A stretch of 64,000 bases of DNA from Minisyncoccota bacterium. GTDB lineage: Bacteria > Patescibacteriota > Minisyncoccia > Phycocordibacterales > PALSA-1337. The notes beneath the pieces are model-generated. The model searched no databases. It saw only the letters and a program-made list of their open reading frames with translations, and was not told where the DNA came from. Location: contig DATDZD010000002.1 of assembly GCA_036516895.1 (NCBI GenBank), forward strand, positions 13,769-77,768. Direction: 5' to 3'. A program made the position numbers and the translations under genes. Shown here piece by piece: positions 2,423 through 63,316 of this stretch (the stretch's first letter is position 1; every line of letters begins with the position of its first letter).

Positions 2423-3637
2423 TTATATTGCATCTACAAGAGAGTACATTGGAGTAATCATGGCCACAGCAAAGAACCCCACCGCGACTGCTATAACAAT
2501 CATGAGAAACGGCTCAATGACAGTAGACATATCTTTTGTCTTCTGGTCAACATCTTCTTCGTAGTATACAGCCACTCCGATAAGCATTTCTCCTATTTTT
2601 CCAGTTTCTTCTCCCACATTTATCATCTCGCTCATAAAGATGGGATAAATATCTGGATTTTCGGAAAAAACTTTTGAGAGAGGGTCGCCTTTCTCTACAG
2701 CTGTAGCAGATTTCTCAAGCACTTTTCTGTAGTGTACATTTTGCACAATATCAGAAGTAATTCTCAATGATTCCAAAATATCAACATCAGATTCTATAAG
2801 AGAAGAGAGGGTTCTCGCAGTGCGAGCAACATTGACTTCTTTTATTAGATTGCCAATAAGAGGTATCTTCAGAATAATTTTGTGGATAATATTTTTGCCA
2901 CGCGCGCTTTTTGACCATAAATAAAAAGCGAAGTAAAGAATAATAAAGCCAGTAAAAATAATAATGCCGTCATTTTGCAGTGCATTGCTTATAAATAACA
3001 CAATTCTTGTTGAAATTGGTAGAGAAAGATGTAATTCTGTAAAAGTCTTTGTTAAAGTAGGAACAACATATGTCAAAAGAATAATAGTTATTATAATCAT
3101 GGCCAATAAAATAACAGCCGGATACAACAAAGCGCCACGAATCCTTCTCTGTAGAGTATAATTTTTCTCCATTTGCAGAGTAACTATGCGCAATGACTCG
3201 CTCATAGTTCCGCTTTGTTCTCCAGAATGGACCATGGCTATCATGAGAGATGAGAACATATTCTTAAATGAACCCATAGCGTCGCTCAACGGCTTGCCTT
3301 TTCGCACATCTTCATTGAGAGTTGAGATAATGCTTTTGACTTTCTTGTTAGTTCCCTGCCTTTCCATAACAGAGAGAGCTTGGGACATGGAAAGTCCAGC
3401 TTTTATCATAGCGCCAAGACTTCTGGAGAAATTTATTTTCTCTTGAGTCCTTATGGAATTGATAAACGGAATCGATATGCTATTTAAAGTCAGCATTTTT
3501 TTATTTTCTTCTACCGATATCACTTCTTCTCCTGATGTTTTAATCATTTTGTACAACTCAAAGCGGTCTTTGGCGTCTTGCTCGCCTTTATGAGTTTCTC
3601 CACTTGGCTTTTTTGCTTTGAAAATGAAATGTGGCAT
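2423..3637 (-). CDS. pilC: Type IV pilus assembly platform protein PilC (GspF family)
   Basis: 404 aa with a polytopic membrane architecture and duplicated GspF-like regions. It lies adjacent to the PilB ATPase and the pilins. Confidence 0.8.
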   Translation of the reverse strand: MPHFIFKAKKPSGETHKGEQDAKDRFELYKMIKTSGEEVISVEENKKMLTLNSISIPFINSIRTQEKINFSRSLGAMIKAGLSMSQALSVMERQGTNKKVKSIISTLNEDVRKGKPLSDAMGSFKNMFSSLMIAMVHSGEQSGTMSESLRIVTLQMEKNYTLQRRIRGALLYPAVILLAMIIITIILLTYVVPTLTKTFTELHLSLPISTRIVLFISNALQNDGIIIFTGFIILYFAFYLWSKSARGKNIIHKIILKIPLIGNLIKEVNVARTARTLSSLIESDVDILESLRITSDIVQNVHYRKVLEKSATAVEKGDPLSKVFSENPDIYPIFMSEMINVGEETGKIGEMLIGVAVYYEEDVDQKTKDMSTVIEPFLMIVIAVAVGFFAVAMITPMYSLVDAI

Positions 3638-53579: not shown

Positions 53580-53948
53580 ATGGAAACACAAACAGGTATA
53601 GGAGAATTTGGACCAATTTATGAAGGAATAAAAGGAAAATATGCTATAGATTTTTTATTGAAAAAGAAATCTGGGGAAGTTCCTGGTGCAATGAAAAGAA
53701 AAGAATTGGGAAATATTGATTTTATTTATGGAAAGCAGGGTGAGCAAGGTTACGGATTAGCTCATATTGAAGAATATCATCCAGATGTTCTTCCTTATCT
53801 TGTGTCAATTATTCAACATGGAGAAATATTCAAGCAAGCTAAAGATCGCATTATTATTGTTCATAAAGTTCCTTTAGAAAAAGGGGTGGCCGTGATAAGA
53901 CTGGATTGGAATGGTATACGGAAACAGTGGCTTGTTAGTGCTTTTTAA
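53580..53948 (+). CDS. Hypothetical protein
   Basis: 122 aa with no recognised family. It is preceded by the conserved motif shared with comM. Confidence 0.45.
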   Translation: METQTGIGEFGPIYEGIKGKYAIDFLLKKKSGEVPGAMKRKELGNIDFIYGKQGEQGYGLAHIEEYHPDVLPYLVSIIQHGEIFKQAKDRIIIVHKVPLEKGVAVIRLDWNGIRKQWLVSAF

Positions 53949-55570: not shown

Positions 55571-56434
55571 TTATGGTTTTAATTTTTTTAGCACCTCTTT
55601 TATTTCTTCTTTTTGTTTTTTCTGTAGCTCTTTCATTTCTCTCTTGTGTCTCGCCGTCATCTTTTTTATATCCTCTGCAGATGGCAATGATTCTGGATAA
55701 ATGTTTGACTTAATCAACACCCCTCTGATGTTCCTATTATTTGTTACATGCTCATTAAGTATACTACCTTTTCCTTGTAGGTCTTTTCTTTTTGTATTTT
55801 CGGTAGTTATAGCTGTTGCAAATTCTTTTGCTGAGATTGTTACCTCTGGTAAAATGTCTGCAAGCGGTGCATTTTTCTTTGCACCAAGTCTCCTTTTCAT
55901 ATCTTCTGTTGTTTTTCCACCAAATAGTGCCTTGTCACCAAAGCTTCGTATTTCAGATATACCACGACCATCTACACCTCTACCGAATACTAATACGGCG
56001 AAAGCCTTTTCAGTAATGGTTAGCTTTTCTCTAGCGCTAATTCTCTTGAGTTCTGCTATTCTTTGTTCAATCATTTCCATCTTTCTGGTTTGTGTTACAA
56101 AATATGCTTGTGCAAAGGCAATTTCTGTTTTTCGAGGATCTCCATTAAGAGTAATTAGATAACAAGCGTATCTAGTCAGCTTAATATCTGGTATTTCTTG
56201 CTTCGTGTTTTTTCCAACAATTATTAGCTTCGTGACGTCACGAAAGTGATCCGCAACAGAACCCCTGGCATTTTTACAAGCTTCTTTTGCTCTCACGATA
56301 GCCGTCTCAAAGTTTTCCCAACGCAAATAACCCAATAAAGGATACAAATCTCGTGCATACCAATACTCTACGCCATTTTCACGACGGACATTATCAAAAG
56401 TTTTGTATAGAATTTGTAATTGAGTATTTTCCAT
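55571..56434 (-). CDS. DinD / Bro-N (KilA-N-like) domain protein
   Basis: The N-terminus NGVEYWYARDLYPLLGYLRWENFETAIVRAKEACK resembles Bro-N/DinD antirepressor-like domains, and a Lys-rich coiled-coil tail follows. The family call is from memory. Confidence 0.45.
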   Translation of the reverse strand: MENTQLQILYKTFDNVRRENGVEYWYARDLYPLLGYLRWENFETAIVRAKEACKNARGSVADHFRDVTKLIIVGKNTKQEIPDIKLTRYACYLITLNGDPRKTEIAFAQAYFVTQTRKMEMIEQRIAELKRISAREKLTITEKAFAVLVFGRGVDGRGISEIRSFGDKALFGGKTTEDMKRRLGAKKNAPLADILPEVTISAKEFATAITTENTKRKDLQGKGSILNEHVTNNRNIRGVLIKSNIYPESLPSAEDIKKMTARHKREMKELQKKQKEEIKEVLKKLKP

Positions 56435-56537
56435 TACTCAATTTTATCACTAGAAAATATTCTGTAAACTTATCAGAGAGAATTAGTTGTTCTGTAATTT
56501 TTTCTTAGGGTAATATAATGAATATATTTTTGTATTT

Positions 56538-57296
56538 TTACTTATTATTTTCCCAAATATAATCAAACATAATACGAAATGTCTCAGTGATGTATTTACT
56601 TTCAATTACCACAGTAACAATTGATTCTTTGAAGTTGGTAATAGCTACTTTATCTCCATAAATAATGATTTGAGCGGGAATGTTTAGTTTTTCTGTAGAG
56701 ACTTTCTTTCGAGTAATGAGGTATTTCTCATCTTCTCCAACTGGCATCACGGTTAGTTGTCCTTCGACATATGGAGTAATGGCTTTTGTTCGTATATTCT
56801 TTGCTGTTTGTTTTTCTATATGCTCTTTTGTCAGATTAAGAATCTCTGGTATGGCTTTATATATAGGAGCACTTATGATTAAAATATCTTGCCCAATATC
56901 GAGAATATCCCCATGTACTCTTTCAATGCCCTCCACTCCTTCATAAAATTGGATGTTCGGTTTACCTGAAAGAGCGTTAAACTCTGATGATAATATGCCG
57001 AATATGGTACTGAAGTCTGAAAAAGCGTGGTTAAGGTTCTGTCTATTTTTCTCAACCATTTCCTTAATATTCCTAGGATGTTTTGGCAAGAAAAGTGCGA
57101 TCTTGCCTATGTCATCTCGCTTCTCAACAAGATTTAGAGCTATGAGCTGGTCAATAATTTTATATGTAAGTGCTCTACCCACAGCTGTTTTTGAAGCTAT
57201 TGTTTTTGCCGAAGAGAAGCCATTGCTTAAAAGATAGGTATATATTTTTGCTTGTTCAAGACTAAGTCCGCATTCCACTAATATTTTTTCATTCAT
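56538..57296 (-). CDS. TrmB-like winged-helix transcriptional regulator
   Basis: The N-terminal HTH LSLEQAKIYTYLLSNGFSSAKTIASKTAVGRALTYKIIDQLIALNLVEK is typical of the TrmB family, and the C-terminal region is TrmB_C-like. Confidence 0.5.
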   Translation of the reverse strand: MNEKILVECGLSLEQAKIYTYLLSNGFSSAKTIASKTAVGRALTYKIIDQLIALNLVEKRDDIGKIALFLPKHPRNIKEMVEKNRQNLNHAFSDFSTIFGILSSEFNALSGKPNIQFYEGVEGIERVHGDILDIGQDILIISAPIYKAIPEILNLTKEHIEKQTAKNIRTKAITPYVEGQLTVMPVGEDEKYLITRKKVSTEKLNIPAQIIIYGDKVAITNFKESIVTVVIESKYITETFRIMFDYIWENNK

Positions 57297-57395
57297 TTTG
57301 TTATATTGTTATGACAATAATATGCTTATTTATCAAGGATACTATAGAAATCGTTATAATACAAGGATTAAAGTGTGGATAAGTGTTGTTATGTA

Positions 57396-57424
57396 TTGAC
57401 AAATCTGTTCAGTATGCTATGATT
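57396..57424 (+). promoter_or_regulatory. Candidate sigma-70-like promoter (TTGACA, 17 bp spacer, ATGATT) driving the GC-rich islet operon
   Basis: TTGACA is at 57396-57401 and ATGATT at 57419-57424, with the first islet ATG at 57434. A perfect DnaA box TGTGGATAA at 57374-57382 lies just upstream. Confidence 0.3.
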
Positions 57425-57433
57425 GTTTCAGAT

Positions 57434-57781
57434 ATGAAAACAACATACTTCGGTTTCGGGATCGCTCCCAGCATGTTTCCCTCGAATTGCACCATTCGTA
57501 AGCAGGAGCTTACGGTGGAGCAGGCAAAGGAAACCATCGCCGGGGGCGTGACCTCCTGCCTCAACCCTAGCCACAAGGCGAGCATTGAGGTGATGGAGAC
57601 GAGGTTCGGCATGAAGGTGGAGATACCGGCGAAAGCGCCGAGCGTCTCCCTCCAAGCTGGAGACCGCTTGGTGGTGATGGGGGTCAGGGGACTCCCCCGG
57701 TTGGAAAACCGGCACGAGTACACCCCCGAGGAGGTGGCAGGTGCGAAGTTCGACTTCGCGCTCTTCACGGTCGGGGAGTAA
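57434..57781 (+). CDS. DUF1874-like (STIV B116 / AcrIII-1 / Crn2 ring nuclease family) candidate; GC-rich foreign gene
   Basis: 115 aa from MKTTYFGFGIAPSMFPSN.... The pattern aromatic-xxx-S-x-M-F, a His at residue 47 (NPSHKAS), GDRLVVMGVRG and RLEN resemble the DUF1874 fold family as recalled from memory. Local GC is about 60% against about 33% for the host. The start follows the promoter at 57396. Confidence 0.4.
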   Translation: MKTTYFGFGIAPSMFPSNCTIRKQELTVEQAKETIAGGVTSCLNPSHKASIEVMETRFGMKVEIPAKAPSVSLQAGDRLVVMGVRGLPRLENRHEYTPEEVAGAKFDFALFTVGE

Positions 57782-57959
57782 TCTCGTAGGGTTGAAGATG
57801 AACCTAAAAACTTTCCTCTCCTGCAGAGTGTGCAGAGAACATGTGATGGTACAGCATATAAATGTATCCATAATGTGATTTGGGCAACCAAGTCCGACTC
57901 TGGGGAAGCTCCAGGGCGCCTGACAAGCGGAAACTGTTGGGATGATTCATTTCATCTCT

Positions 57960-58010
57960 TGCCTCTCGGAATGTATATTCCGACTGATGAGTCCGAAAGG
58001 ACGAAAGGCA
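57960..58010 (+). ncRNA. Hammerhead ribozyme, type III (HHR-1)
   Basis: UGCCU-C^-UCGGAAU-GUAU-AUUCCGA-CUGAUGA-GUCC-GAAA-GGAC-GAA-AGGCA. Stem III is UGCCU/AGGCA with A15.1-U16.1. The cleavage site is C17, after 57965. Stem I is a 7 bp hairpin. The CUGAUGA core is at 57984-57990. Stem II is GUCC/GGAC with a GAAA loop (G10.1-C11.1), followed by G12 A13 A14. All invariant core nucleotides are present. Confidence 0.75.
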
Positions 58011-58233
58011 GAATATCTTTGAATTTCCTTGTGAAAGCAAGTTTGTAAGATTAGAGAATTGAGTCTTGCAGTAAAAATAAAGGTGTCATACCAAATCATG
58101 CAAGTGAGGTGAGTATGAAAAAGAAAAGCTGAAAGTGCTTTCGACCTAACTTGGCCGAGATGAACAGCCCGGCCCATCATCCAGAGAGTGACCCTGCTAC
58201 GGTACGACAGTTCATTTTGACTGTCATACCGAA

Positions 58234-58446
58234 ATGGGATGGGTGCTTGCACCCATGTTCAAAATTTTCAGACCGATTCCTGCTAGTAAGGAATCGGTAA
58301 AGGATTTGCTCCGTAGCGTGATTGGTAACAATCAGCGTAAGGAGTGGTATAAATCCCGCTCAAGGACCACCATCCTTGAGCACTTCATTGAGTCCTTGAT
58401 TGAAAGATTATTGAGGATTCATAGAGTTTCAGTTTCAGTTTTTTAA
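58234..58446 (+). CDS. Small hypothetical ORF within the HHR-flanked unit
   Basis: 70 aa with no strong RBS and no recognisable family. It may be non-coding. Confidence 0.2.
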   Translation: MGWVLAPMFKIFRPIPASKESVKDLLRSVIGNNQRKEWYKSRSRTTILEHFIESLIERLLRIHRVSVSVF

Positions 58447-58474
58447 AAATTAAATAAAGAAAGGAGGTGAAAGG

Positions 58475-58834
58475 ATGCGAAGTTCGTGTCGGGAAGACGG
58501 GAGGCGCAATACCCTTGGTTATTTCAGAGGTGCTCGGGAATTTTTTCCTCAAGGCACCTTTAAGGAAATCGAGTTAGTTGTGGCTCTCGATCCAGTCTGG
58601 CATTCATCGGATGGAATCAGCGAGGTAGTCATGGCGATTGGGGCTGCAGAGCGTAAGCTCAATAGTCTCAAAGACCGAAAGGATTACCTGGTAAGATCCA
58701 TTGCCGATGATCAGAATTGGTGGCGTCCTTCCCCAGAAATGAAACAGCTATATAGACAAGAGCTTAAAACTCTTCGTCAAGAAGCTGTGAAATTTCAGAG
58801 GGAACTGGATGAACTCCAAGCCATTATTGGATGA
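58475..58834 (+). CDS. Hypothetical protein (islet ORF) with a strong Shine-Dalgarno sequence
   Basis: AAAGGAGGTGAAAGG sits immediately before the ATG, a context absent from host genes. 119 aa with a C-terminal coiled-coil-like region. Confidence 0.5.
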   Translation: MRSSCREDGRRNTLGYFRGAREFFPQGTFKEIELVVALDPVWHSSDGISEVVMAIGAAERKLNSLKDRKDYLVRSIADDQNWWRPSPEMKQLYRQELKTLRQEAVKFQRELDELQAIIG

Positions 58835-58972
58835 CCGCAGGAAAGACTGCCAAAGGATCACTCCAACCTTTGTAATAGAAGAGTGAAAAGTTCACCTGAA
58901 CAAGGATGAAACTTTTGTCACCGTCATAAAATGGTGAGTTGGGGTTGCAGACCCTGGGGATCGTAAGATTCT

Positions 58973-59027
58973 CTTCTGTCTCGGAATATGTATTCCGACT
59001 GATGAGCTCAAAAGAGCGAAACAGAAG
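58973..59027 (+). ncRNA. Hammerhead ribozyme, type III (HHR-2)
   Basis: CUUCUGU-C^-UCGGAAU-AUGU-AUUCCGA-CUGAUGA-GCUC-AAAA-GAGC-GAA-ACAGAAG. Stem III is 7 bp (CUUCUGU/ACAGAAG). The cleavage site is C17, after 58980. Stem I is identical to that of HHR-1. The CUGAUGA core is at 58999-59005 and stem II is GCUC/GAGC. Confidence 0.75.
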
Positions 59028-59073
59028 TTTTTATAAATATTTTTTAAATCAAAAAAAGAAAGGAGGTGAAAAA

Positions 59074-59406
59074 ATGAAAATCGTGCGTTTGGAGCCAGAG
59101 AAGATTCTCGAAGCGATTCGTATCGCAAGTGAGAGTTTTGGAACATTCCACTTTACTCATCTGCCGGAGAGGATCAGGGATGGTGTAGATGAGCTTGCAG
59201 AGGATTTTAGGCTATACTCGTTTTGGGAAAGTAGCGACTTTTGTTGCTGTTTTTCTCCAAAGTGGGCTGCTGAAGATGCCTCTGATAGGGGAATGGCGGT
59301 GGATTCCAAGGATCTCGCGAAAAGGAAGAAGGGATTCGCAAAAGTCTGCCAAATTTTTGGCTGTTCAGCTAAGGATGAGGTGGTTGGGATCCGTCCAATT
59401 CTTTGA
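59074..59406 (+). CDS. Hypothetical protein (islet ORF) with a strong Shine-Dalgarno sequence
   Basis: AAAGGAGGTGAAAAA sits before the ATG at 59074. 110 aa, MKIVRLEPEKILEAIRIASESFGTF.... No family recognised. Confidence 0.5.
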   Translation: MKIVRLEPEKILEAIRIASESFGTFHFTHLPERIRDGVDELAEDFRLYSFWESSDFCCCFSPKWAAEDASDRGMAVDSKDLAKRKKGFAKVCQIFGCSAKDEVVGIRPIL

Positions 59407-59471
59407 GCTTCTAAAACTGCGACCTACGGCACGCGGGGAAGAGTAACTTCCTGGCAACAGAATTGTTACAG

Positions 59472-59490
59472 GAGAATCCATGATTCTCCA
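59472..59490 (+). terminator. Hairpin GGAGAATC-CAT-GATTCTCC followed by an A/T-rich tract, a candidate islet terminator
   Basis: Perfect 8 bp stem. A weak T-tract (aatttattaatttcg) follows. Confidence 0.25.
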
Positions 59491-59539
59491 ATTTATTAAT
59501 TTCGTAACTCGCGTTGTGAATTTATAGATTAAAAAATAG

Positions 59540-60589
59540 TTACAACAATTTTCCAGACCCCTTTATCTCCAAATGCGCGTACGCCTTCTCTGTCGGAGCT
59601 CGCCCGCGAGGTGTGCGCTCGAGAAGGCCGAGCTGGATTAAATACGGTTCGTACACTTCCTCTATCGTCGCTTGTTCTTCGGAAAGGGCGGCGGCTATGG
59701 TATTTAAGCCAACGGGCTTGCCACCGAATTTGTTTATCATTGTCTTCAATATATCTCTATCTGCACCGTTCAATCCCAAATGGTCCACACCCAACATTTT
59801 TAACGCTTTCTCAACTATATCTTGAGAGAGAGATGTTTTCTCAATCTGGGCGTAATCTCTGCATCTTTTTAGAAAATAGTTTGCTGTTCTTGGAGTAAAT
59901 CTGCTTCTTGACGCTATGGCTTTTATGGCGTCTGGGTGAATATCAATATCAAGTATCTTTGCTGACCTTTTTATAATTTCTCCTATTTCGCTTTCAGTAT
60001 AAAATTCAAGCTTGAAAACTCCACCAGAAAAACGAGAACGCAGGGGAGAAGAAATCATAGCTATGCGAGTAGTAGCGGCAATAAGTGTAAAAGAGGGAAG
60101 TTCAAGCTGAATAGTTCTAGCCGAAGGTCCTTTTCCAATGATAATATCAAGCGTCCCAGTTTCCATAGCTGGGTAAAGCACTTCTTCAATAGCTTTGTTT
60201 AGCCGATGTATTTCGTCTATAAAAAGAATATCTCCGTGAGATAGATTTGTAAGAATTGAAGCCAAATCTCCTATCTTTAATATAGCAGGTCCAGAAGTGA
60301 CTTTCATTTGAGCTTCTGTTTCTTTTGAAATGAGATGAGCTAGTGTTGTTTTTCCCAAGCCGGGCGGTCCATAGAAAAGAATATGCTCTGGAGGGTGATT
60401 GCGCTCTTTTGCCGCAGTTAAAAGTATATGCAGATTATCCTTTATTCCTTTTTGTCCTATATATTCTGCCCAACGGCCTGGACGCAAGGTCTGGTCAAGG
60501 TAACCGGACTCGCTATTTCTGTCAGTCACCCTATCTCTCGTCGCGTTTTTTTTCTTGCCATTTTCTGTTTTGGGTGATATTTTTTTCAT
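59540..60589 (-). CDS. ruvB: Holliday junction branch migration ATPase RuvB
   Basis: LDQTLRPGRWAEYIGQKGIKDNL..HILFYGPPGLGKTTLAHLIS (Walker A), Walker B ILFIDEIHRL, and a winged-helix C-terminal domain. Confidence 0.9.
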   Translation of the reverse strand: MKKISPKTENGKKKNATRDRVTDRNSESGYLDQTLRPGRWAEYIGQKGIKDNLHILLTAAKERNHPPEHILFYGPPGLGKTTLAHLISKETEAQMKVTSGPAILKIGDLASILTNLSHGDILFIDEIHRLNKAIEEVLYPAMETGTLDIIIGKGPSARTIQLELPSFTLIAATTRIAMISSPLRSRFSGGVFKLEFYTESEIGEIIKRSAKILDIDIHPDAIKAIASRSRFTPRTANYFLKRCRDYAQIEKTSLSQDIVEKALKMLGVDHLGLNGADRDILKTMINKFGGKPVGLNTIAAALSEEQATIEEVYEPYLIQLGLLERTPRGRAPTEKAYAHLEIKGSGKLL

Positions 60590-61027
60590 ATAGGTTGAGA
60601 AGATGTCTATATATTTATCATTGACATATCAATCAAACTGTGCTAGTCTTTCCATATTGATTGATTAAGATTGATATTAAATGGTAATGGGAAAGTAGTT
60701 TATAGTATAGCACTTTGTATGAAAGCTTCGGATTCATGAATCTCTAAGCAATATAGCTAGTTTACTAGTTATCTGACATAGTGTCGTGGACATTCTGGTT
60801 ACCATCTTGTATGTGTTTACTGGGGTCATCCTTGGCCCTATGTTTATCTTTTAATGATCGCATTGAAAGCATTGCTTAGAGATTCTTGCACCCGACTCGC
60901 ATTTAATAATCAAATACCTATAATTTTTCATAAAACCTCATATTAACTTTCTAAACTTATAGTACTACTATTTTTTCCAATTTCAATTGACACTGTAAAA
61001 TTTATAGTTCGTAACTATTCGTAATGA

Positions 61028-61363
61028 TTATAAATTCTTCGGAGGAAGTTTAATACCATGCCCTTCCAGTCGCTCTCTATCACTTGCTGTGACTCTAGAA
61101 AGTTCAAGGTGTTGCGTTCTATGTTTATCCTCCAATTTTCTTATTTCTCTTTCCAATTCTCTTATTTTTGCCTCATCTTGAGGAATTTTTCTCTTTCTTT
61201 CATCAATTTCACGCATTTCCTTCTCGTTTTGTTGTTTGAAGTTTGTTATTTCTTCTTGCAATTTCTGTTTTTCTGATTTCTTTTCATTTAGAATACTAGC
61301 GTCATGTTCCATCTCCTGTTTTAGTCGTTTGAAAGTCAGTTCAAAATTATCAATTGAGCTCAT
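61028..61363 (-). CDS. Hypothetical coiled-coil protein downstream of the second PilB-like ATPase
   Basis: 111 aa with a highly charged heptad-like sequence. Confidence 0.4.
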   Translation of the reverse strand: MSSIDNFELTFKRLKQEMEHDASILNEKKSEKQKLQEEITNFKQQNEKEMREIDERKRKIPQDEAKIRELEREIRKLEDKHRTQHLELSRVTASDRERLEGHGIKLPPKNL

Positions 61364-63240: not shown

Positions 63241-63316
63241 GCCGATGTAGCTCAGTTAGCAGAGCACCACTTTCGTAAAGTGGTTGTCGTCAGTGCAATT
63301 CTGGCCATCGGCTCCA
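63241..63316 (+). tRNA. tRNA-Thr (anticodon CGU), CCA encoded
   Basis: GCCGATGTAGCTCAGTTAGCAGAGCACCACTTTCGTAAAGTGGTTGTCGTCAGTGCAATTCTGGCCATCGGCTCCA. The anticodon stem CCACT/AGTGG encloses the loop UUCGUAA. The acceptor stem is GCCGATG/CATCGGC. Confidence 0.8.

Follow-up and report, generated by a model that had tools for sequence, protein, structure and literature searches.

In a 64-kb window of a Minisyncoccota genome (the whole stretch of DNA analysed, within which all coordinates are 1-based), a GC-rich islet lies between the gene for a TrmB-like regulator and ruvB. Our analysis indicates that this islet is probably a conserved, vertically maintained chromosomal operon of Patescibacteria, in which small variable genes are separated by hammerhead ribozymes and structured RNA and the transcript is cut into single-gene RNAs. 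The array extends on the forward strand from its promoter to the second copy of a hairpin termed element X (57396–59543). Its real genes are three open reading frames (ORFs), ORF1 (57434–57781), ORF2 (58475–58834) and ORF3 (59074–59406), the first of them a B116-like gene; short overlapping ORFs on both strands of the islet were dismissed as noise. Related loci and contigs compared with the window carry the labels L001–L142. A first-pass annotation had read the islet as a horizontally acquired mobile or prophage-derived cassette, or else as an assembly chimera, and contained neither the two hammerheads nor the several conserved structured RNA elements that we describe here.

Hammerheads and other structured RNAs between the genes

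The forward strand of the islet has a mean folding z-score of −2.15 in 120-nt sliding windows, compared with −0.38 outside it, and includes two type III hammerheads, HHR1 (57958–58012) and HHR2 (58973–59027), which lie 1,015 nt apart in the same orientation. Rfam RF00008 matched HHR2 at 49.4 bits, above its gathering score of 48.5 bits, and HHR1 at 42.2 bits (E = 2.3 × 10−7 in a local scan). With a clade-specific covariance model, R1, that we built after a strict motif scan, HHR1 and HHR2 scored 75 and 73.6 bits, respectively. The cmscan alignments and the motif scan show that the CUGAUGA...GAAA cores of both are intact, with C at position 17, where a residue other than G is required, and that all three stems of HHR1 pair; cleavage is predicted after C57965 in HHR1 and after C58980 in HHR2. 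A family alignment of 18 members has 17 pairs, 14 of them compensatory; its members had been chosen beforehand for pairing, a bias that raises the paired percentage and leaves the compensatory changes unaffected. This covariation supports the type III topology, in which stem III is open and three helices surround the core.

Hammerheads of this kind recur in the same setting. R1 identified 32 confident copies in the window and 81 related loci, typically two or three per locus and all on the strand of the B116-like gene, with 27 of the 32 no more than 2.5 kb downstream of the B116-like stop codon; further hammerheads were present in metagenomic loci. No Rfam family other than the hammerhead matched the islet even at E ≤ 10, apart from chance-level matches to Lacto-rpoB, rliG and sR52. 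Among 25 B116 loci that lack hammerheads, neither another ribozyme class nor the ‘DUF1874 motif’, a structured RNA associated with DUF1874 genes, reached the Rfam gathering score, the presence of the latter motif in the Rfam copy used being unconfirmed. A short conserved leader, ‘GUUCUUUGAA’, with the consensus (A)AAGUUCUUUGAA, comes right behind the hammerhead in at least 31 of 56 distinct cases and is likewise seen after element X. Its copies in the window are at 58011–58030, where it reads GAAUAUCUUUGAA after HHR1, and at 59028–59045, where it is degenerate after HHR2.

Each separator in the window is preceded by a pseudoknotted 3′ element, designated motif A, C or D. Motif A (57882–57959, forward strand) is a 3′-untranslated-region (3′-UTR) element of three hairpins and a pseudoknot that is joined to the 5′ side of HHR1 and scores 79.8 bits with its own model, R2. 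Its alignment has 26 invariant positions, 95.6% of cells paired and 12 compensatory pairs, a result that none of 500 shuffles reached. R2, supplemented by a pattern scan of metagenomes, gave 47 hits over all loci, 33 of them distinct. In most of the hammerhead-bearing copies, no nucleotide separates the 3′ end of motif A from the first position of the hammerhead. An ORF ends 16–100 nt upstream of 31 of the 33 distinct copies (the other two are too near a contig end), and ten of these 31 ORFs are B116-like. A search of 2.9 million viral contigs for motif A returned no match.

Motif C (about 58850–58972, forward strand), a pseudoknot with hairpins in the 3′-UTR of ORF2, abuts HHR2. It is common to the window, L132 (two copies), L138, L016 and L031, and has moderate support, with 88% of cells paired and four compensatory pairs. 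Across motif C and HHR2, the window and L138 are 87% identical over 198 nt; the two loci share their RNA joints and not their ORFs. Motif D (59425–59490, forward strand) combines an H-type pseudoknot, in which P1 is GGAAG/CUUCC and the loop GUAA pairs with a downstream UUAC, with a hairpin at 59471–59489; the first-pass annotation had correctly placed a hairpin here, ahead of the ruvB stop codon at 59540. In an alignment of four sequences (A11; the window, L138, L013 and L031), the pseudoknot helix has four pairs, three of them compensatory, and is 100% paired. When the islet was compared with other loci by BLAST, conservation was confined to such non-coding RNA pieces.

Element X occurs twice on the forward strand of the array. 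Copy 1 (58381–58440; 53.5 bits with its model, R3) is a conserved long hairpin, CUUCAUUGAGUCC...GGAUUCAUAGAG, placed between cistrons, and copy 2 (59489–59543; 50.2 bits) ends the array, overlapping the stop codon of ruvB on the opposite strand in a region whose sliding-window folding z-score is −5.7 (59440–59559). The element has the form CUUUAU-UGAGUUC...GAAUUCA-UAGAG, and its family alignment contains 15 pairs, nine of them compensatory. R3 recovered 50 copies, which, apart from one weak match, lie on the operon strand. The order of separators differs from locus to locus: it is X, X, hammerhead, X in L138 and X, hammerhead, X, X, X, X in L141. The separator after motif D is X in the window, L138 and L013, and a hammerhead in L031. 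Element X and the hammerhead therefore fill the same slot between genes. Motifs A, C and D and element X are thus four structured RNA elements with covariation, without an Rfam match and unreported, the comparison with the ‘DUF1874 motif’ having been made by description and not by alignment.

The head gene and the variable cargo

ORF1 encodes a protein of 115 residues with the fold shared by DUF1874, STIV B116 and AcrIII-1/Crn2. Its AlphaFold2 model has a predicted local distance difference test score of 90.8, and in a Foldseek search with this model the best match was AcrIII-1 (6SCF), with a template modelling (TM) score of 0.77, and the top 16 matches all had the DUF1874 fold. Matches at TM scores of 0.67–0.77 comprise 6SCF, 2J6B, 2X4I, 2J85 and 8Y7F/G, and the proteins matched include AFV3-109, SIRV1 ORF114a, STIV B116 and the Crn2 domain of Csx1–Crn2. 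At the profile level, ORF1 scored 19.1 bits against Pfam PF08960, below the 26-bit cut-off, many of its homologues carry a precomputed PF08960 assignment, and weak matches were obtained to AFV3-109 (E = 2 × 10−3) and to PADLOC Csx16 (E = 3 × 10−5). His47 of ORF1 is invariant in 28 homologues and is aligned with the histidine of AFV3-109 in the profile match. In SIRV1 gp29, His47 is absolutely conserved and belongs to the active site, being catalytic in AcrIII-1 (bioRxiv 10.1101/778746). From the fold matches and this invariant histidine, we conclude that ORF1 is a remote member of the ring-nuclease fold; it is probably a ring-nuclease-type phosphodiesterase. Unlike the characterized AcrIII-1/Crn2 proteins (10.1101/778746), to which it is 13–22% identical, ORF1 is chromosomal, in bacteria for which type III CRISPR has not been demonstrated, and is conserved at 60–87% identity across many Patescibacteria with a persistent bias in GC content at third codon positions (GC3). 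We saw no CRISPR genes in any locus examined.

ORF1 has 314 homologues, and the 120 matches listed are 56–87% identical to it, those with named sources nearly all coming from Patescibacteria. In 78 of 80 loci, and irrespective of host composition, the B116-like gene exceeds the flank upstream of it in GC content (means of 59% and 47%). Compared with its closest relatives, ORF1 is 36–73% identical at four-fold degenerate sites, where chance gives about 35%, and 74–85% identical in amino acids. Because it is GC-rich in almost all loci and its synonymous sites have strongly diverged, ORF1 is an old gene under purifying selection and not a recent arrival. B116-like genes also occur on 11 viral contigs, at 43–59% identity, and are more distant from ORF1 than the chromosomal ones.

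The B116-like gene is not always the first cassette: in L020 (1914–1976) and L036 (2857–2919), a hammerhead lies about 100 nt upstream of it, after an ORF of 255–297 residues. Nor is it always present. L139 and L141/L142 have TrmB-headed arrays punctuated by X and hammerheads without any B116-like gene, the head gene of L141 encoding an MJ1673-like protein (PF27247), and on the strength of these arrays we rejected the idea that B116 is an obligatory core. The constant features are the regulator, the punctuation and the layout, and B116 is the commonest head cassette.

The other cassettes carry rare genes with fast turnover. ORF2 (119 residues, forward strand) follows a perfect AAGGAGGTGA site at 58461–58470 and has one true homologue, P0122, among 5.8 billion proteins, with 49% identity, no gaps and the same start and stop. 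P0122 is encoded in L132, bracketed by two hammerheads and directly after TrmB and B116. Codon differences between the two genes number 45, 39 and 71 at the first, second and third positions, and only this frame is open. This codon-position pattern, the ungapped homologue and the single open frame led us to reject ORF2 as a non-coding structured RNA, a candidate suggested by the folding of its region (z-score −6.95), which may be both coding and structured. ORF3 (110 residues, forward strand), preceded by a perfect AAGGAGGTGA site at 59060–59069, returned its self-match alone in a word-indexed search; an exhaustive search of 1.84 billion representatives recovered six full-length relatives at 34–51% identity. 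Two of these, for which the context was fetched, are in TrmB-headed arrays, one of them (L141/L142) flanked by X on both sides. All homologues of ORF2 and ORF3 with a readable context lie in similar arrays of other Patescibacteria, and no family was found for either protein in Pfam, PHROGs, NCBIfam or PADLOC.

Cargo at other loci is just as varied, with 54 hammerhead-following ORFs falling into 45 clusters. Among 44 cargo proteins scanned, three matched Pfam (two GNAT and one SpoU), and none gave a convincing match to the defence models of PADLOC, in which a single weak match to the JetA coiled coil was seen (E = 2 × 10−4). ORF2 and ORF3 are real genes, then, but very scarce ones, recurring only in arrays of this kind and behaving as exchangeable cassettes.

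Between HHR1 and the first copy of element X, a strongly structured cassette without an ORF (58013–58380, forward strand) has a 3′ part (approximately 58277–58380) that is conserved in other arrays; the segment 58282–58440 matches L001, L016, L031, L010, L014 and L138. Folding z-scores are −7.6 for the 464-nt ORF-free stretch 58011–58474, −3.8 for 58022–58276 and −5.3 for 58277–58432. The cassette contains the Shine–Dalgarno sequence GAGGTGA and an ATG at 58116 with an in-frame TGA at 58131, after four sense codons. Past this TGA the frame stays open for another 55 codons, to 58300, and ends inside the conserved block B, a pattern by which 58116–58300 may be a decayed small cassette gene. L141 also has an ORF-less gap between two copies of X (3187–3496).

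Regulator, promoter and chromosomal setting

Divergent from the array, on the reverse strand, lies the gene for the TrmB-like winged-helix regulator (56538–57296; Pfam TrmB PF01978, E = 1.7 × 10−8), which has a host-like GC content of 34.5%. In every genomic context examined, it adjoins a B116-like gene or an array, and we therefore assign it to the module. The array has a sigma-70-type promoter of its own, as the first-pass annotation had proposed, with an extended −10 region (57396–57423, forward strand): TTGACA-N16-TGCTATGAT, in which a 16-nt spacer separates TTGACA from the −10 box TATGAT, matches 11 of 12 consensus positions and has the TG extension. The blocks TTGAC and TGCTAT.AT are invariant in nine loci (alignment A8). 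We infer that the promoter is active and that the TrmB-like protein probably controls it.

Ribosome-binding sites set the cargo apart from the host. The sequence AAGGAGGTGA occurs exactly twice in 64 kb, at 58461 before ORF2 and at 59060 before ORF3. A Shine–Dalgarno core of any kind was found upstream of 1 of 47 long host ORFs, whose leaders are A-rich, in agreement with the earlier observation that host genes lack such sites; this suggests that the organism initiates translation largely without Shine–Dalgarno pairing. The same annotation had credited all three islet ORFs with strong sites, which holds for ORF2 and ORF3 and not for ORF1. The ATG of ORF1 is 10 nt after the −10 box and has no Shine–Dalgarno sequence, making this gene effectively leaderless. 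In L014 (5686–5752), L024, L138 and L132, a conserved 5′-UTR segment, AGAAACGATAGATAYGGGATGAG...CCGCTGTCGT, stands between the promoter and the B116 start; its deletion from the window accounts for the leaderless state of ORF1 there.

The reported GC content of 48–60% is likewise right for the ORF1 end of the islet (50–59% at 57400–57999) and too high for the rest, where GC is 40–48% from 58000 to about 59800 and 39–47% by feature. The contrast with the flanks (27–38%; 36.2% for the whole window) is real. By feature, ORF1 reaches 59.5% (GC3 0.80), ORF2 and ORF3 about 47% and the stretches between ORFs 39–43%, compared with 34.5% for the TrmB-like gene. The high GC content of the islet is accounted for by the family-wide GC3 bias of ORF1 together with the density of RNA structure.

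The islet has the TrmB-like gene on one side and, on the other, ruvB (59540–60589, reverse strand), which is convergent with the array and ends at 59540; as had been noted before, ruvB is thereby parted from yebC and ruvC. No ruvA was found among the ORFs scanned, which were those of the 54–64-kb part of the window. The frame RuvC–YebC–TrmB, array, convergent RuvB is common to the window, L001–L004 and L138, and L141/L142 share its RuvB end. Among relatives with the same frame, the position of the array is constant and the genes inside it differ; no presence/absence polymorphism of the array was encountered, as the relatives have it at the same TrmB–RuvB position with the cargo alone varying. 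The first-pass annotation had itself held that an identical islet in all close relatives would be ancestral, and by that reasoning the location of the islet and its head count as ancestral.

What does come and go at this locus is a neighbour. A DinD-like/Bro-N gene (55571–56434, reverse strand; NCBIfam PRK11525, E = 4 × 10−86; PADLOC PDC-S13, E = 6 × 10−99) lies between yebC and the TrmB-like gene in the window and L135–L137, and the relatives L001 and L138 have no DinD-like gene at that position; the presence/absence difference here concerns this gene and not the GC-rich islet. Further out, at approximately 53580–53948 on the forward strand, a 122-residue ORF with a PBECR1 (toxin-like nuclease) domain is recorded in the gene table of the near-identical contig L135, and at 61028–61363 on the reverse strand a 111-residue ORF for a lysine- and glutamate-rich coiled coil lies between ruvB and a gene for a PilB-like ATPase.

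Origin, processing and role of the array

The abrupt change in composition had raised the suspicion of an assembly chimera. However, three independently assembled contigs from different samples (ERZ27254752, ERZ4903072 and ERZ28563625) are colinear with 56400–60700 at 99.86%, 99.95% and 100% identity, ungapped and spanning both junctions, relatives share the architecture, and the array sequence is present in chromosomal DNA of at least four assemblies. Because the three assemblies reproduce the window so closely, a chimera is ruled out, and we give it practically no chance. A recently acquired mobile or prophage-derived island between TrmB and ruvB would fit the GC content and ribosome-binding sites, which are sharply unlike those of the host, and the near-orphan status of ORF2 and ORF3; the compositional anomaly and the exchangeability of these two genes are the parts of the first-pass proposal that survive. 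The islet is nevertheless not a discrete insertion, as relatives share its position and head gene, the TrmB-like gene is part of the module, and ORF1 is old and consistently GC-rich. Within 57300–59600 no ORF for an integrase or other recombinase was present; direct repeats flanking the islet in the manner of attachment (att) sites were short and at chance level; the meaningful repeats inside it are the two hammerheads and the two Shine–Dalgarno leaders, with no others; the nearest tRNA, at 63241, does not adjoin the islet as it would in a tRNA-adjacent genomic island; and blastn of the islet, the suggested check for a phage origin, gave no hit in a set of 50,697 phage records. We consider a recent island highly improbable. 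A different proposal, about the role of the cargo and compatible with an RNA-processing mechanism, is that of an anti-defence locus of the acr–aca type, possibly a remnant of a phage or other mobile element of Patescibacteria, with a helix-turn-helix regulator, a strong promoter, a ring nuclease of the AcrIII-1 family and hypervariable small anti-defence proteins. Anti-CRISPR operons combine a neighbouring helix-turn-helix regulator and a promoter close to the consensus with small ORFan genes that vary among close relatives, and the regulator, promoter and ORFan genes of the array resemble them. The AcrIII-1 fold of ORF1 with its catalytic histidine kept, the B116-like genes on viral contigs, the scarcity of known domains in the cargo and the Shine–Dalgarno sites of cassettes in a host whose genes lack them point the same way. 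An anti-defence role is possible but doubtful, given that the cargo yielded no convincing PADLOC match beyond the weak JetA hit and that three of its 44 scanned proteins matched Pfam, that the viral homologues of ORF1 are the more distant ones, that motif A is absent from viral contigs, that the chromosomal position is conserved with no integrase, and that no sign of a type III CRISPR or cyclic tetra-adenylate (cA4) system was seen in the host.

Two further explanations concern the separators themselves. The alternation of separator and ORF, the hypervariable cargo with conserved joints, and the long imperfect hairpin of element X recall integron arrays, which also string small exchangeable cassettes of mostly unassigned function behind one promoter with imperfect hairpins as separators; the separators could then be DNA-level recombination sites without a nearby integrase, recognized as folded single-stranded DNA in the way of attC. 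The same idea has been raised for the ‘DUF1874 motif’ (Weinberg et al. 2017, PMC5737381). Here, however, the separators include hammerheads, catalytic RNAs with an intact core that are strictly co-oriented with the genes, and no integrase or recombinase was found in any array context examined. G–U pairs are common in the stems of motif A and element X, which favours RNA, since the opposite DNA strand would have A–C mismatches. The separators thus resemble RNA-level signals, and DNA-level sites are very unlikely. Two direct-orientation type III hammerheads 1,015 nt apart could also release the highly structured RNA between them (57966–58980), to be circularized by a host RtcB-type ligase as a retrozyme- or viroid-like circle encoding ORF2. 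The 5′-hydroxyl and 2′,3′-cyclic-phosphate ends left by hammerhead cleavage are substrates of RtcB and would suit such a ligation. This RNA forms numerous local hairpins instead of a rod, though, and it contains element X, by which the unit would probably be cut again; the distance and content between ribozymes vary freely from locus to locus; and no ligase was seen here, none having been sought. Circular or spliced products of clustered hammerheads were sought by Perreault et al. (PMC3088659) and none was found. We see only a very slim chance of such a circle.

We therefore favour a conserved operon that is processed as RNA. The TrmB-like regulator would be divergent from a strong conserved promoter driving a same-strand array of small cassettes, headed by the protein of DUF1874/AcrIII-1 fold and continued by rare small genes with fast turnover, each cassette ending in a pseudoknotted 3′ element (A, C or D) and then a hammerhead or X. 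One long transcript, probably under TrmB control, would cleave itself after C57965 and C58980 and would be cut at X by another activity, for which our simplest guess, drawn from the early genes of phage T7, is an enzyme of the RNase III type. In those genes, RNase III cuts long hairpins between cistrons and yields monocistronic mRNAs with stabilizing 3′ hairpins. The function that we propose for X and the hammerheads is the same, with the differences that the base of the X stem is conserved in sequence, that X recurs as a family and that part of the job would be done by self-cleaving RNA. Because type III cleavage leaves nearly the whole ribozyme on the downstream product, the 5′ end of a cassette RNA would be a compact ribozyme body with a 5′-hydroxyl. 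Each single-gene RNA would further have its own strong Shine–Dalgarno site and, at its 3′ end, a pseudoknot, a hairpin and a short tail with a 2′,3′-cyclic phosphate. Such ends should resist exonucleases, and the stability and translation of a cassette would be uncoupled from those of its neighbours, as would suit an array whose members are frequently replaced. The shared RNA-coding joints would in turn allow cassettes to be exchanged by recombination. This scheme of cleavage in the cell, processing at X, stabilization and exchange is read from sequence.

Several observations weigh against such an operon. HHR1 falls short of the Rfam gathering score. Hammerheads, X or motif A (models R1–R3) were found in about one quarter of the B116-containing genome loci and some arrays (L139 and L141) lack B116, which makes the module non-uniform. 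The GC3 bias of ORF1 is left without an explanation, motifs C and D are supported by four to six sequences, and nothing points to an agent that acts on element X. A stabilizing role for motifs A, C and D is a guess, and the 26 invariant positions of motif A suggest a more specific partner. In a bolder version that we consider unlikely, the arrays would form a widespread, integrase-less Patescibacteria cassette system with TrmB-controlled, RNA-defined units, possibly for anti-defence and headed by an AcrIII-1-like ring nuclease. Each small, rapidly replaced gene would close with a pseudoknot module of its own and be set free by a hammerhead or X interchangeably; X would be a new class of self-cleaving ribozyme or the site of a dedicated nuclease, and motif A a gate of cleavage that responds to a ligand or protein.

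Hammerhead clusters have a precedent in prophages, where they flank non-constant genes; cleavage was demonstrated in vitro, and also in vivo in the case of one cluster, and processing of long transcripts was proposed (Perreault et al. 2011, PMC3088659). The array shares with them several co-oriented hammerheads that flank single variable genes or short blocks, along with the proposed processing into gene-length mRNAs. In contrast to those clusters, it keeps a conserved place in the chromosome of Patescibacteria, without an integrase and outside any prophage context, always stands beside a TrmB-like regulator and usually has a head gene of the DUF1874 fold, and its ribozymes are joined on their 5′ side to the pseudoknots A, C and D and alternate with hairpin X in the same slot. 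The ‘DUF1874 motif’ recurs as motif–ORF–motif–ORF in consecutive intergenic regions with no integrase, and its role was left open (Weinberg et al. 2017, PMC5737381). Structured RNA with DUF1874 genes, the same alternation and the lack of an integrase are common to both, and by this analogy our locus looks like an equivalent of those arrays that belongs to another phylum and employs ribozymes.

The purpose of bacterial hammerheads has been an open question since their discovery in 2010–2011. The array extends hammerhead clusters to a new phylum and to a conserved operon of the chromosome, with a natural alternation of hammerhead and hairpin, and it adds a new RNA element, motif A, that is physically joined to the ribozyme. 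Because hammerhead and X occupy the same slot of the same conserved operon in related genomes, whatever function is proposed for either can be checked with its counterpart. The array also connects the ‘DUF1874 motif’ arrays, so far unexplained, with a second system, one that uses ribozymes, in another phylum. For annotation, the locus is a warning: where an AT-rich genome shows an anomaly of GC content and ribosome-binding sites, the cause can be dense RNA structure and an ancient gene of odd composition rather than horizontal transfer. For this uncultivated phylum, the rare small proteins encoded beside the AcrIII-1-like gene are candidates for new functions, possibly in anti-defence.

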